Positions 1 to 27,507 of a DNA stretch of 27,507 nucleotides are shown piece by piece. Origin of the DNA: Coleofasciculus sp. B1-GNL1-01 (GTDB taxonomy: Bacteria; Cyanobacteriota; Cyanobacteriia; Cyanobacteriales; Coleofasciculaceae); the NCBI GenBank assembly GCA_040220235.1, contig JAVJTO010000074.1; one strand, given 5' to 3'. Position 1 is the first letter of the stretch; each line of letters opens with the position of its first letter. A model generated the notes under the pieces. That model did no database searches, was not told the DNA's origin, and saw only the letters and a list, made by a program, of their open reading frames with translations. The position numbers were made by a program, and so were the translations under genes.

Positions 1-126
1 AGTGATGCTAACTGGAAACGGTTGGGACAATTTACCGCCAAAAAAGTCCAGTTGTTGCAGCGAAATACCGGATTGGTATCAACAGTTGGATTGTCAAACC
101 TTACCACATCGAGTGGTAAGGTTTGA
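1..126 (+). CDS. isrB: C-terminal 41 aa of an IsrB/RRXRR-family protein (5'-truncated by the window edge)
   Basis: Frame 1 reads SDANWKRLGQFTAKKVQLLQRNTGLVSTVGLSNLTTSSGKV* (TGA 124-126). This resembles the C-terminus of cyanobacterial RRXRR/IsrB proteins as I recall it. Not in the ORF track. Confidence 0.8.
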   Translation, partial: SDANWKRLGQFTAKKVQLLQRNTGLVSTVGLSNLTTSSGKV

Positions 127-23656: not shown

Positions 23657-24006
23657 TCTAAAAAAACTAAATATTAGGATTTTTTTAAATACAAAAAAAT
23701 AAAAATTGCTTAAAAATACCTACAAAAAATAATGCGACCCTCTAATGACACTATACAGAAATAAGGTAAATTTTTATTTATTCAGAGAAAAACAAAGCGG
23801 CGCTTTATCGAAAAAATACAATATTTGGCTGATTCCTTTGGTAAATTTAGTGGGTATACTAGATCCTTGATACTTTCATTCAATTTAATCTTTGAATAGA
23901 GAAGAATCTATCCCTATCAAAGGAGTAATACAATGCTTTGCGGATCAAAGAATTGAAATCACGAAAAGTCCTTAAACTGTGATCCTTTATATCTGTGGAA
24001 AAACTT

Positions 24007-25698
24007 ATGAAAGTAGCGCCAATCCATATCTCAAACCTTGAGAATCAAGAGTTTTTACAAGAATCCTCTGAGAGGGTAGAACTGATAGAGCAGTTACTGG
24101 CAATTGGTACAGCCCTTTCGAGTAGTAATGATTTGGAGGAATTACTCCGACTAATTTTATCCAAAAGCCGGGAAATTACGTTTAGTGATGCAGGTAGTCT
24201 GTATCTGATCGATCACACTCAGGCGGAGCCGAGATTGTTATTTAAGGTGGCACAGAATGACTCGCTACCCAACAAGCCATTCAACGAGTTCGTAATGCCT
24301 CTCAACCGTAAAAGTTTGGCGGGGTACGTCGCGCTAACGGGTGAAAGTTTAAAGTTGGCAGATGCGTATAAATTGCCTGCCAATGTGCCTTATGCCCTTG
24401 ACCGCAGTTTTGACACGAATATGCCCTATCGGACTTGTTCGGTATTAGTTTTGCCGATGCAAAAACCAGACGGAGAAATTATTGGCGTATTACAACTGAT
24501 TAATCGCAAGCGCCGCCCTGATGTCATGCTCACAGCCAAAAACGCTGTGGACGTGACCCAGCCCTATTCAGAATGGGAAGAGCGGATTGTGCGATCGCTG
24601 GCGTCTCAGGCGGCAATTTCCATTGAACGCAATCATCTTCAAGAAAGTATCGAAAATCTGTTTGAGGGCTTTGTCAGAGCCTCTGTGCAAATTATTGAGA
24701 CACGGGACCCGACAACCTCTGGTCACTCGGAACGGGTGGCAGAACTCACCGTGCGACTGTGTGAAGAGACGTCGGCAATCACCAAGGGTTCTCTGAGTTC
24801 CGTGTATTTGAACGATCGCCAAATCCGAGAACTTCGCTATGCGGCATTGTTACATGACTTTGGCAAAGTGGGTGTCCCAGAAGCCATTTTGGGCAAGCGC
24901 AAGAAACTCTATCCCTCACAGCTAGAGGTGATTCTCCATCGCTTTGCCCTAGCGCAGCGCACTCTGGAAATGGAATGCGCTCAAAACAAGTTCAAGTATT
25001 TACTCGAACATCCTGACCATCGCCATGACAATAACAATTCAACTTCGAGCTGTCCTCACTGCCAAAAACTAGAACAGCTTGATACACAACTGGCTCAAGC
25101 CATTGAAACAATCAAGCATTATCGGGAATTTGTGCAACAACTCAATGAGCCAGAAGTACTGCTAACTCGCGATTTTCAGGCATTTACAGAGGAAACATTA
25201 ACTCAACTAACTGTTTTATCCCAATACACCTATCGAGATGTAGATGGTCAACTCAAACCCCTGATTACCAAGGCAGAGATGGTTCAATTGCTTGTGCCAA
25301 AAGGAAACTTAACCCCTGAAGAGCGTCTGGGCATTGAGTCTCATGTTACCCACACGTACCATTTTCTCCAACGCATTCCCTGGACAAAGCATCTCAAAGA
25401 CGTTCCGATAATTGCCTATGGACATCACGAGAAACTCGATGGCAGTGGTTACCCCAGGGGCTTAAAGCAAGATGAAATTCCCATCCAAACCCAAATGCTC
25501 ACCGTTGCCGATATCTATGACGCCCTCACCGCCAGCGATCGCCCCTACAAGCGGCGGCTACCCCTGGAAACAGCACTGAAAATCCTTCGCCAAGAAGCCA
25601 CCAAAAATAAAATTAACGGTGACTTAGTGGAGTTATTTGAGCAACGCCAGGTTTTTCGCGTTTTGGGTCATTCCCTCAACATTGACTCTGTGGCTTGA
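24007..25698 (+). CDS. GAF plus HD-GYP cyclic-dinucleotide phosphodiesterase
   Basis: GAF IIGVLQLIN; GHSERV, LLHDFGKVG, HHEKLDGSGYP and ADIYDALT..DRPYK motifs; a long insert containing CPHC. Confidence 0.93.
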   Translation: MKVAPIHISNLENQEFLQESSERVELIEQLLAIGTALSSSNDLEELLRLILSKSREITFSDAGSLYLIDHTQAEPRLLFKVAQNDSLPNKPFNEFVMPLNRKSLAGYVALTGESLKLADAYKLPANVPYALDRSFDTNMPYRTCSVLVLPMQKPDGEIIGVLQLINRKRRPDVMLTAKNAVDVTQPYSEWEERIVRSLASQAAISIERNHLQESIENLFEGFVRASVQIIETRDPTTSGHSERVAELTVRLCEETSAITKGSLSSVYLNDRQIRELRYAALLHDFGKVGVPEAILGKRKKLYPSQLEVILHRFALAQRTLEMECAQNKFKYLLEHPDHRHDNNNSTSSCPHCQKLEQLDTQLAQAIETIKHYREFVQQLNEPEVLLTRDFQAFTEETLTQLTVLSQYTYRDVDGQLKPLITKAEMVQLLVPKGNLTPEERLGIESHVTHTYHFLQRIPWTKHLKDVPIIAYGHHEKLDGSGYPRGLKQDEIPIQTQMLTVADIYDALTASDRPYKRRLPLETALKILRQEATKNKINGDLVELFEQRQVFRVLGHSLNIDSVA

Positions 25699-25759
25699 CC
25701 CCTGGAAATTCCAGAGAGGTGCGGGGAAGCAGGGGAAGCACGGCGAACAAGACCCGCAA

Positions 25760-25787
25760 GTAGAGACGTGACAGGTCACGTCTCTAC
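25760..25787. repeat. GTAG-REP palindrome
   Basis: GTAGAGACGTGAC-ag-GTCACGTCTCTAC. Confidence 0.9.
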
Positions 25788-25896
25788 TTCTTTTGAGTGT
25801 GAACTGTGGGGACTGGATCGACGCCCTAAAGCTGATCCGAGTAGTATTGATCCGTGTATCGATCCGTCCCCGATCAAACAATTTGCAATTCTTATC

Positions 25897-26033
25897 TTTT
25901 CACCTAGTTTTCCCCACTAGATTCCCCAGTGTTTCCACATGAAATTTCCAAGTTTTCCACAAATTACATAAGGTTTTCCACAGGGATGAACGGCGGGATC
26001 GAGCCTATCCCCTCATGTTGGGGATTTTCCCCA
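25897..26033 (+). promoter_or_regulatory. Cluster of DnaA-box-like nonamers
   Basis: TTTTCCACA at 25953 and 25974, one-mismatch copies at 25908, 25931 and 26025, and weaker ones at 25897 and 25920. Confidence 0.55.
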
Positions 26034-26065
26034 TCAAGGATATGGAGGCGATACTCAACTGAATT

Positions 26066-26083
26066 TGTGTAAACTTGTGTAAC
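26066..26083 (-). promoter_or_regulatory. HLR1-like (RpaB-type) direct repeat
   Basis: Minus strand GTTACACA-AG-TTTACACA, one mismatch per half against KTTACAWW-N2-KTTACAWW. Confidence 0.4.
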
Positions 26084-26362
26084 GAAAATCGGATTCAAAG
26101 GCTGATTCTATCGTTAGCATTTTGGCGATTTGAGTGACCTTGTAATATTTCGTATCATTGACAACCCCACCCCATCTCAGTTGAGAATAGTGCGACCTAC
26201 CCATAAAAAAACTTGAGACAAGCAAAAGCAACAAGAGCAGTGGGTGCTGTGTCTAAGTCTATTTGCCGCTAGGTTTTAGCTACATTAGCCGATTTCCACA
26301 GACATGTAGAGAGCGAGCAAGGTGGCTTTTGTCCCAACACGCTATTCGATAGAGAGGTAACT

Positions 26363-26587
26363 ATGAACGCAACCGTCAGCATTTTGGCAGAAATCCCTGA
26401 AGACCTACACGAGTCCCTTAAGCGCTACTTAGAAACCCATCCTACTTGGGATCAAGACCGGGTTTTTGCCGCAGCGCTATCGCTGTTTTTGCTCCAAAAT
26501 GGGAGTGGTAAGACACCTGAAGCCTCCCAGACCTATCGGGCTTGCGCTCGTGTCTACTTAGAATCTCTATTTCAGTCTCCGGCTTGA
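26363..26587 (+). CDS. DUF2811 family protein
   Basis: VSILAEIPEDLHESL..YLETHPTWDQDRVFAAALSLFLLQN, with RBS AGAGG upstream. Confidence 0.9.
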   Translation: MNATVSILAEIPEDLHESLKRYLETHPTWDQDRVFAAALSLFLLQNGSGKTPEASQTYRACARVYLESLFQSPA

Positions 26588-26599
26588 GTAAAGTAGTGA

Positions 26600-26826
26600 G
26601 TTCAACAACCCTAACCTAGCTATCGCTTGAGGCTAGGGATTGCCAGAGACAGGTCTGGTAACGCAAGAGTTGAATAGACCATGGGTTCCGTTAGTTGGTA
26701 CGTACTTCCAGGTACTTCCCCATCCTGGACTATCTACAAGTCTGCTTGTCATAGACGCTTTAAGAGAGGACATCTTGCTAACGGTGGTCGAGGGGACTGA
26801 CAACTTTACACGAAAGGCTTATACCC
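26600..26826 (+). ncRNA. omegaRNA (HEARO-like) scaffold of IsrB
   Basis: Complementary pairs TTCAAC/GTTGAA (26601/26669), CCGTTAG/CTAACGG (26688/26778) and TCCAGG/CCTGGA (26707/26724). Pseudoknot-type pairs GACCA/TGGTC and TCCCC/GGGGA. Directly upstream of a PLMP ORF. Confidence 0.85.
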
Positions 26827-27369
26827 ATGATTCGTGTTCCAGTTTTATCGCCAGATGGTGAGCCACTAATGCCAGCTAAAGCCAGCCGTGTTCGGCGATG
26901 GTTAAAGTCAGGTAAAGCCAAAGTCATACACAACGATTTGAGTATTTTTCAAGTCCAGTTACTAGAGGAGCCATCGGGCAGGGAAACCCAAGACATCGTA
27001 GCCGGAATTGATCCAGGTAAACTGTTCACCGGGATTGCTGTCCAGTCAAAGAGTGTCACCTTGTTTCTGGCACACCTGAACCTACCCTTTAAAACCGTGA
27101 CCAAGCGGATGACCCAACGGGCGATGATGCGACGGGGACGGCGAGGGCGACGGATTAACCGGAAGGTTCCTTATGACCAACGCAACCACCGCGAGTGCAG
27201 ATTCGATAACCGCAAGGGTCACAAGATACCCCCTAGCATCCGGGCTAATAAGCAGTTAGCACTACGGGTGATCCAGGAGTTATCAAAGATTTACCTGTTC
27301 ACCGATGTAGTGGTGGAGGTGATTAAAGCCAGAGGTGACAAGGGTTTTAGTCCGGCAATGGTCGGTCAG
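26827..27369 (+). CDS. isrB: IsrB RNA-guided nickase, 5' exon (181 codons), interrupted
   Basis: PLMP motif, RuvC-I GIDPG, Arg-rich bridge helix RRGRRGRR, RFDNR, PPSIRA and RuvC-II VVVE. No HNH seen before the interruption. Confidence 0.88.
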
Positions 27370-27507
27370 GTGCGATTCGTTGGCTAGAAATCAGCCAGAG
27401 TTCTTCTGAGAGCCTAGGTTTGAAGGATTAGCCGCAAGGGAAAATGACGGGATAACACCCAACAGAACCTTGACAACTTAACAGCCATGTTGGTGAGGGT
27501 CAGTATC
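27370..27507 (+). mobile_element. 5' end (domain I) of a group II intron, truncated by the window edge
   Basis: Begins GTGCGATTCGTT (GUGYG consensus) exactly where IsrB similarity stops. Followed by hairpin TGGCT/AGCCA and a CC-GCAA-GG GNRA loop. Confidence 0.75.

Follow-up and report, generated by a model that had tools for sequence, protein, structure and literature searches.

The closest described relatives of the arrangement reported here are the 2511-bp introns, encoding proteins with reverse transcriptase (RT), GIIM and HNH domains, that interrupt the tnpB open reading frames (ORFs) of IS605 and IS605B elements in Coleofasciculus chthonoplastes PCC 7420, where occupied and empty copies are both present (Kapitonov, Makarova and Koonin 2016, PMC4810608, supplementary Fig. 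S9). Two other systems serve as points of reference: the IsrB nickase DtIsrB, whose structure has been solved (PDB 8DMB; Hirano et al. 2022, PMC9581776), and the IStrons, in which a group I intron is fused to an IS200/IS605 element with tnpB (PMC4227781, PMC10690162). Here we analyze a 27,507-nt stretch of DNA, hereafter the window, from the assembly of Coleofasciculus sp. B1-GNL1-01 (G000; 8.66 Mb, 172 contigs). The window is the entire contig C74, which terminates within an intron, 138 nt into the insert. We conclude with high confidence that positions 27370-27507 are the 5' end of a recently active mobile group II intron that retrohomed into an isrB gene and whose splicing would restore IsrB.

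Why compare this locus with the tnpB introns of PCC 7420? Both introns are cyanobacterial, about 2.5 kb long and encode an RT/GIIM/HNH protein of about 600 residues; both are site-specific, interrupt the nuclease ORF of an element of the IS200/IS605 superfamily and are oriented in sense with it; and both occur as near-identical copies in diverged hosts, with empty copies alongside. They differ in that the host here is isrB (IscB1 in PMC4810608) rather than tnpB, and in that the site lies at the boundary between the HNH linker and RuvC-III. The uninterrupted IsrB paralog on contig C29 resembles DtIsrB (PMC9581776) in being about 370 residues long and in lacking HNH, and the conserved leaders of other isrB copies give weak, sub-threshold HEARO-like matches. 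The window isrB differs in being split by an intron, and its nickase activity, guide and target-adjacent motif are putative. The protein encoded by the intron shares the RT-X-D-En architecture of T.el4h-type introns, and the best solved relative of its C-terminal 97 residues is the 'Maturase reverse transcriptase' of a cyanobacterial intron ribonucleoprotein of that type (PDB 6ME0, E 1.3e-06). Like an IStron, the locus joins a self-splicing intron type to an OMEGA-type transposon. In an IStron, however, ribozyme and transposon form a single chimeric element, and the group I ribozyme excises the entire transposon from host transcripts; the intron here is an independent group II retroelement that interrupts the nuclease ORF and would excise nothing but itself. 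An IStron identity was considered and rejected, the ribozyme being of group II and lying inside the ORF.

The host frame runs on the plus strand from 26827 to 27369 (543 nt, 181 codons) and is interrupted at a codon boundary. Translation of the ORF 26827-27387 gives ...KGFSPAMVGQ and then VRFVG and a stop. The inserted GTGCGATTCGTT begins at 27370 (GTGCGATTCGTTGGCTAG...), and the TAG at 27385-27387, the sixth intron codon, closes the unspliced frame. In the C29 paralog, which has no intron, the sequence is continuous at this point (...AMVGQ/HWQIEQ; ...AMVGQ/HWQIEQLASAGYTVH...). Group II introns begin with the consensus GUGYG, and the GTGCGA at 27370 fits it. The 138 nt that follow on the plus strand to 27507, identified by their identity to other copies, are thus the beginning of domain I of an intron that is 2522 nt long elsewhere. 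Rfam found no match in the window from 25500 to 27507 at E<=1, since 138 nt of domain I are too little for that library.

By sequence, the interrupted gene is isrB, an OMEGA RNA-guided nickase gene, with the nickase activity predicted. The 181 codons of the 5' exon extend from PLMP through RuvC-I, the bridge helix and RuvC-II into the HNH linker, most of which they include. Residues 4-167 of the window ORF match the Pfam family RRXRR, which represents the N terminus of IscB and IsrB (E 9.4e-46), and over residues 1-181 the exon shares 87% identity with the uninterrupted IsrB of C29. The latter aligns over residues 2-352 with DtIsrB (E 1.3e-40), and a profile built from eight G000 isrB paralogs matches the same structure with an E value of 8.1e-63. 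RRXRR was the sole family found in a Pfam scan of the 373-residue C29 paralog, which showed no HNH, while the two true IscBs of G000 (on C165 and C122) do contain the HNH block. RuvC-III (...AAHAVDG...) and the TI domain lie outside the window, on 3' exons at C134 and C117 whose frame is open to the stop.

Where is the rest of the intron? The 138 nt of the window are 100% identical to C14:3070-3207, the last 138 nt of that contig, whereas the isrB and leader preceding them on C14 share only about 83% identity with the corresponding part of the window. Two further contigs, C134 and C117 (read in reverse complement), open with the last 259 nt of the intron, 258 of 259 positions being alike between the two. 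These 259 nt hold the final 41 codons of the RT-HNH ORF, with the HNH motif, followed by domain V and domain VI, and end in ...CCGACCCAAAC. The Rfam model Intron_gpII (RF00029) matches C134:180-259 and C117 with 58.9 bits against a gathering score of 40, and the match ends exactly at base 259. Base 260 opens TAT TGG CAG ATT... (YWQIEQLEQAGYTVH..., YWQIEQ), with which isrB resumes in frame to its stop; the junction closing the window copy would be expected to have the form ...CCCAAAC/TATTGGCAG. Two intron copies therefore explain four contig ends in G000. Joining C74 to C134 in silico gives a protein of 374 residues that matches the C29 protein at 323 of 373 positions. Both exons of both occupied copies are open, and their joined products align full-length to the intact paralog.

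Using the 138 nt as query, 40 relatives besides G000 were searched. A genome of the same genus, G004, carries them at 99% identity on contig C194, inside 134.7 kb of continuous sequence, and a second genome of the genus, G007, has two contig ends with the intron's first 52 nt. The G004 intron measures 2522 nt from GTGCGA to ...CCCAAAC, and isrB exons abut it at codon boundaries on both sides. Its ORF encodes 596 residues from the first ATG, with the Pfam domains RVT_N (5e-35), RVT_1 (2.5e-45), GIIM (2.1e-19) and HNH (3.1e-11). Complete 2522-nt introns at the identical isrB site were also found at loci L031, L121, L122, L126 and L127, with 137 of the first 138 nt identical. A search for the exon-intron junction among metagenome contigs found seven, each with a 5' flank ending in the isrB motif ...GFSP(A/V)MVGQ; six of these flanks are long isrB exons, belonging to several subfamilies. 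The best proxy for the G000 copies is the metagenome locus L122, whose 2522-nt intron matches the G000 intron ends at 137 of 138 and 258 of 259 positions and whose exons are both of C29 type; joined in silico they encode 375 residues, identical to C29 IsrB at 310 of 373 positions. In another genus, a Floridaenema genome (L033) has a copy at the same isrB site, its RT 94% identical; this RT is truncated to 481 residues, and the end of the 5' exon is degraded (...VMVGL instead of ...VMVGQ). The RT ORF is intact (596 residues, YADD) in six of the seven copies examined; in G000, only its last 41 residues are assembled. Besides G000, one other member of the genus, one genome of a different genus and seven metagenome contigs thus share the arrangement. 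An idea of co-conversion was dropped: the metagenome 5' exons that share ...KARGDKGFSPAMVGQ differ at many synonymous sites and represent short-linker subfamilies.

Could the break instead be an assembly artefact or a simple truncation, with isrB cut short where the contig stops or fused to sequence foreign to it? The window does stop 138 nt past the break, and the intron interior is absent from the assembly. The same junction nevertheless stands on C14, within the long G004 contig, in L033 and on the seven metagenome contigs, and matching 3' junctions stand on C134 and C117. We consider this explanation refuted by the recurrence of the junction and leave it next to no probability. The sequence-only reading had proposed a group II intron in sense orientation within isrB, breaking the IsrB similarity after ...FSPAMVGQ at 27370 and supplying the stop at 27385-27387; it had asked that the sequence be extended to look for an RT/maturase ORF, domain V, an AY 3' end, an exon-binding site 1 (EBS1) complementary to GGTCAG, and the resumption of isrB with RuvC-III downstream. 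The 5' junction, domains V and VI, the RT ORF and the isrB exons bear out the first of these, and counterparts of all the others were found outside the window: the RT-maturase-HNH ORF on the G004 contig, domain V and the in-frame 3' exon on C134 and C117, the ...AAC end described below, and a candidate EBS1 in full-length copies.

The catalytic parts of the intron have the expected form. Its 3' end is ...AAC, the base at which the RF00029 match also stops; domain V of the G004 copy is matched by the same model, and domain V matches the plastid group II D5 model RF04357 with 53 bits. When the last 83 nt of the G004 intron were folded with ViennaRNA, domain VI appeared with an unpaired G-A, the A lying 7 nt before the 3' splice site (...CCCAAAC/). 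A distance of 7-8 nt from branch A to 3' splice site is usual. The Rfam models for domains D1 to D4 matched neither the window end nor the G004 copy.

How would the intron recognize isrB? A hairpin at about nucleotides 341-367 of the G004 intron presents the 8-nt loop UUUUGACC, within which a hexamer at nucleotides 352-357 (TTG(A/T)CC; UUGACC in G004, UUGUCC in six other copies) is the candidate EBS1. It is complementary to the final six exon bases, GGnCAR (GGTCAG/GGTCAA), which in the window form the putative intron-binding site 1 (IBS1; GGTCAG, 27364-27369, plus strand). Exon and loop hexamer form six Watson-Crick pairs in L031, five pairs of six in L032, four Watson-Crick and two G-U pairs in L121 and L127, five of six with a U-U mismatch at -4 in L122 and L126, and three Watson-Crick and two G-U pairs in L033. 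A candidate EBS2 (ACCATT/ACCATG, at about intron nucleotides 313-318) pairs with exon (C/A)ATGGT; the corresponding IBS2 (AATGGT/ATGGTC) occupies 27357-27363 of the window. At this second site a single position has changed on both sides: exon C stands with intron G in G004, exon A with intron T in L032, L121, L122 and L126, and exon G with intron T in L127. The target thus appears to be the conserved nucleotide motif ATGGTnGGnCAR, which encodes M-V-G-Q. These EBS1 and EBS2 assignments, made from complementarity in full-length copies, are plausible and not settled.

A six-frame scan of G000 for FSP[AVI]M[VTAI]GQ found 14 isrB copies, two of them occupied (C74 and C14) and 12 empty, and in metagenomes several isrB subfamilies are occupied. 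This agrees with the earlier suggestion that isrB offers the intron a multicopy homing target. The same reading also cast isrB as a vehicle for the intron, and this part fails: intron ends that are identical in exons only about 83% alike indicate that the intron is much younger than the paralogs and that it entered them separately (homing) or spread by conversion, rather than being carried by a transposing isrB. We propose that the 2522-nt intron, which encodes a 596-residue RT-maturase-HNH protein, has retrohomed in sense orientation into isrB, with the motif ATGGTnGGnCAR read by EBS2/EBS1 base pairing. Because a conserved motif would be read by base pairing, several diverged isrB paralogs could be entered independently. 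Splicing in vivo would then restore a 374-residue IsrB; where the intron is retained, translation would halt five codons into it and yield a 186-residue fragment without RuvC-III. In this model one parasite lives on another: the intron would exploit a multicopy, dispensable and conserved target and would do so without cooperating with IsrB.

Is the intron spliced? Sequencing runs were compared as contigs, the highest share of sampled words of the stretch in any run being 0.27. RNA run X13 contains a 2524-nt contig on the G004 locus that spans exactly the intron (L029 1981-4502), and in RNA run X7 the intron is covered by two contigs. An exact-intron contig is no sign of an excised intron, since any assembly can be expected to break where a repeat begins or ends. 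In DNA run X1, the intron is covered by a contig of 2604 nt whose loose end is a 5' exon of the ...GFSPVMTG type, and in DNA run X3 the loose ends at the 3'-exon border are empty C24-type sites. No exon-exon joint across the intron is listed among the run contigs. That splicing would restore IsrB we infer from exons and an RT that are intact and from catalytic parts of canonical form. IsrB production from an occupied copy would depend on splicing, as the sequence-only reading supposed.

Several points weigh against the interpretation of an active, spliced intron that finds isrB by base pairing. Nucleotides 139-2263 of the intron are absent from the G000 assembly, so that near-identical proxies supply the RT, EBS1 and EBS2 attributed to the G000 copies; the 3' partner of the window may be either C134 or C117. 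The EBS1 pairing is imperfect at several occupied sites (L122, L126 and L033, for example), another TTGACC, six nt farther downstream, could serve as EBS1 instead, and the candidate EBS2 lies inside a stem rather than a loop in the minimum-energy fold. C29 has the identical 12-nt IBS2-IBS1 ATGGTCGGTCAG yet is empty; the first 3'-exon base, C in C29 and T in C134 and C117, may matter here. RNA contigs that reach the 3'-exon border could stem from the intron-less paralogs, which are present in DNA run X3, and taken together the RNA contigs neither demonstrate nor exclude splicing.

These points bear on one alternative in particular, namely that the insertion is a dead end: a real intron that splices inefficiently at this site, leaving two occupied isrB copies to decay. 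No exon-exon joint appears among the run contigs, the related L033 copy has a truncated RT and a degraded IBS1, a different intron in another isrB of G000 (on C34) starts with CTGCGA instead of GTGCGA, and the twelve intact empty paralogs make any single isrB copy dispensable. Yet the exons are open in both G000 copies, the near-perfect identity of the intron ends against about 83% in the exons marks both insertions as recent, six of seven near-identical copies keep an intact RT, and the intron has canonical domains V and VI with a canonical branch A. We therefore consider a dead end unlikely and prefer a recently active intron.

The sequence-only reading went further and raised a composite system, in which an RNA-guided nickase and a retroelement would cooperate. 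Such cooperation could consist in hitch-hiking on isrB transposition, in splicing-gated expression of IsrB or in recombination bridges provided by the intron. The intron does sit at a domain boundary, and of four complete 2522-nt loci, three pair a 5' exon of one isrB subfamily with a 3' exon of another: L031 combines a 90% C29-type 5' exon with a 93% C11-type 3' exon, L126 an 87% C29-type 5' exon with an 83% C71-type 3' exon, and L127 is mixed. The mixed loci, however, are short-read assemblies across a 2.5-kb repeat, and L122 and L126 share an identical 5' exon and differ in the 3' exon, as assembly chimeras do. L031, L126 and L127 are probably chimeric assemblies. The identical intron ends in diverged exons speak against hitch-hiking for both G000 copies, and introns of the same clade also lie in tnpB, iscB, a DDE transposase gene and others, with nothing specific to IsrB function. 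With nothing pointing to a cooperating system, we hold it to be very improbable, and the recently active, self-serving intron remains our preferred interpretation.

Where does the intron sit in the protein? Positions were transferred to DtIsrB with a chain-to-protein offset of 150, anchored on F119, R124, V161 and F174 (PMC9581776). The intron then falls between K181 and T182 of DtIsrB, whose 'HNH linker' has been defined as residues 161-179 (PMC9581776). In the window it follows the Gln181 codon. The RuvC-II glutamate lies 17 residues before this point and the HNH linker ends two residues before it; RuvC-III (...HAVDG...) and the target-adjacent motif (TAM)-interacting (TI) domain fall in the 3' exon. 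The HNH insertion point could not be placed by sequence: the IsrB profile aligned with solved IscBs only up to the RuvC-II glutamate, and a MAFFT alignment with the G000 IscBs was unreliable past the intron site. The mapping consequently rests on the DtIsrB numbering, by which the coincidence of the intron site with the HNH linker is real.

IscB and Cas9 have been proposed to owe their HNH to a group II intron inserted in an ancestor that lacked this domain (PMC4810608). An HNH-encoding intron in an HNH-less isrB, at the linker between RuvC-II and RuvC-III, may occupy the very place that HNH holds in IscB and Cas9, and intron decay with in-frame capture of the En domain could create an IscB-like gene. 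In a second reading, the identical 2.5-kb introns at this module boundary may act as bridges by which isrB paralogs swap guide-RNA-binding 5' halves and TAM-reading 3' halves. Related introns also occupy several other positions in isrB, iscB and tnpB, which weighs against the evolutionary reading, and the HNH of the intron showed no specific likeness to the HNH of the G000 IscBs (BLASTP E 44-67); among Cas9 HNH fragments in PDB its best E value was 0.72. That the arrangement is a living example of the postulated intermediate, or that introns bridge isrB recombination, is to our mind a long shot. An intron of this type is now seen in isrB, whose lineage is presumed ancestral, and it lies two residues from a linker named for the absent HNH. 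It does not prove the scenario of 2016; it offers natural material for testing it.

How widespread are such introns? G000 contains seven group II introns, on C74, C14, C34, C161 and C45 and twice on C83. At C34:56110-53542 (minus strand; L015), a different RT-bearing intron of 2569 nt splits another isrB in frame, directly after the RuvC-I motif (...GIDPGKCYS/GIGVQS...); its first base is the C noted above, where G is usual. The intron at C161:11988-9961 interrupts tnpB at ...YFEQQ/NCLPEFK..., the site published in 2016 for Coleofasciculus IS605 (PMC4810608), and that at C45:9094-6548 interrupts tnpB in the RuvC-III region (...CGHFDHA[D]KQAARNI). In L011, a cobalamin riboswitch (RF00174, 64.8 bits) was recognized close to the C45 intron. 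At C83:17857-12583 two introns of 2660 and 2501 nt stand in tandem, about 115 nt apart; no frame is open across either junction, and the host sequence is unreadable.

Among contigs representing one genome per species, the best 80 of 322 RT relatives were kept. In a tblastn search with the IsrB and IscB proteins of G000, the flanks of six of these 80 matched; isrB was interrupted at the present site in two of the six, L031 and L033, and L109 gave a weak match to HNH only. Also among the six, a Calothrix metagenome-assembled genome (L045) has a related intron that interrupts an iscB with HNH after residue 37. The remaining two, L084 and L104, have a whole iscB beginning about 200 nt past the RT stop, and their introns may be located in the omega-RNA or leader. 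Of 37 ORFs of at least 40 residues in the 3' flanks, 29 were scanned with Pfam; seven were dropped because the domain-V pattern matched away from the intron end (L038:4638, L056:1318, L070, L077:4256, L082, L094 and L110), and L105 was dropped as full of X. The scan recovered six TnpBs, one IscB and eight other families (ribonucleotide reductase small chain, SNase, DDE transposase, HD_4, HNH, UbiA, EPSP synthase and pentapeptide), some of which may be neighbouring genes rather than hosts; 14 of the 29 ORFs had no family, two IsrB 3' exons among them.

What, then, is new? The earlier description of the nested arrangement as unusual holds for the host gene, isrB, and does not hold for the kind of intron, since RT-HNH introns in tnpB of this genus have been in print since 2016 (PMC4810608). 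The abstract, discussion and supplement file 1 of that paper give intron insertions in tnpB only. In the portions of the literature on group II introns with IsrB, IscB or TnpB that were available to us, we found no published description of an intron inside an isrB or iscB ORF. There are practical consequences. Gene callers will label intron-split isrB copies as truncated, assemblies break at such introns, as at the four contig ends of G000, and surveys of cyanobacterial OMEGA nucleases will undercount intact genes unless introns are first removed.

Upstream of the interrupted gene, positions 26601-26826 (plus strand) presumably form the omega-RNA scaffold, being conserved 5' of other isrB copies; they align at about 83-84% with the regions 5' of the C14 and C29 isrB copies. 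The HEARO model (RF02033) matched the C14 leader at full length with 40.9 bits and the G004 leader with 30.5 bits, both below the gathering score of 83. For the window copy, an Rfam search of 26540-26900 at E<=10 gave a chance CoTC match only, leaving its omega-RNA region unrecognised. A second partial copy of the omega-RNA and isrB start in G000, C29:13267-13542, is 87% identical to window 26601-26879; it lies about 100 nt 5' of the intact C29 isrB element and resembles a tandem partial duplication.

The other end of the window holds a separate repeat break. Positions 1-123 (plus strand) are the 3' end of a different isrB copy, with positions 1-114 corresponding to IsrB residues 328-365 by tblastn, and positions 1-184 match the end of contig C6, taken in reverse complement, at 99.5% identity; both window ends thus break in isrB-related repeats. 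Next to the interrupted gene, 23995-25698 encodes a 567-residue GAF and HD (HD_5) protein and 26363-26587 a 74-residue DUF2811 protein, about 14 nt past whose stop the presumed omega-RNA begins. Five same-strand 9-mers resembling TTTTCCACA, which we take to be the cyanobacterial DnaA-box consensus, lie within the 126 nt of 25908-26033, 5' of the DUF2811 gene (two exact, three with one mismatch), and a further one lies at 26292-26300. Over the full window, TTTTCCACA is matched 19 times with at most one mismatch against 10.0 expected, a count reached in one of 100 shuffles. The 25908-26033 region could be oriC-like or DnaA-regulated.

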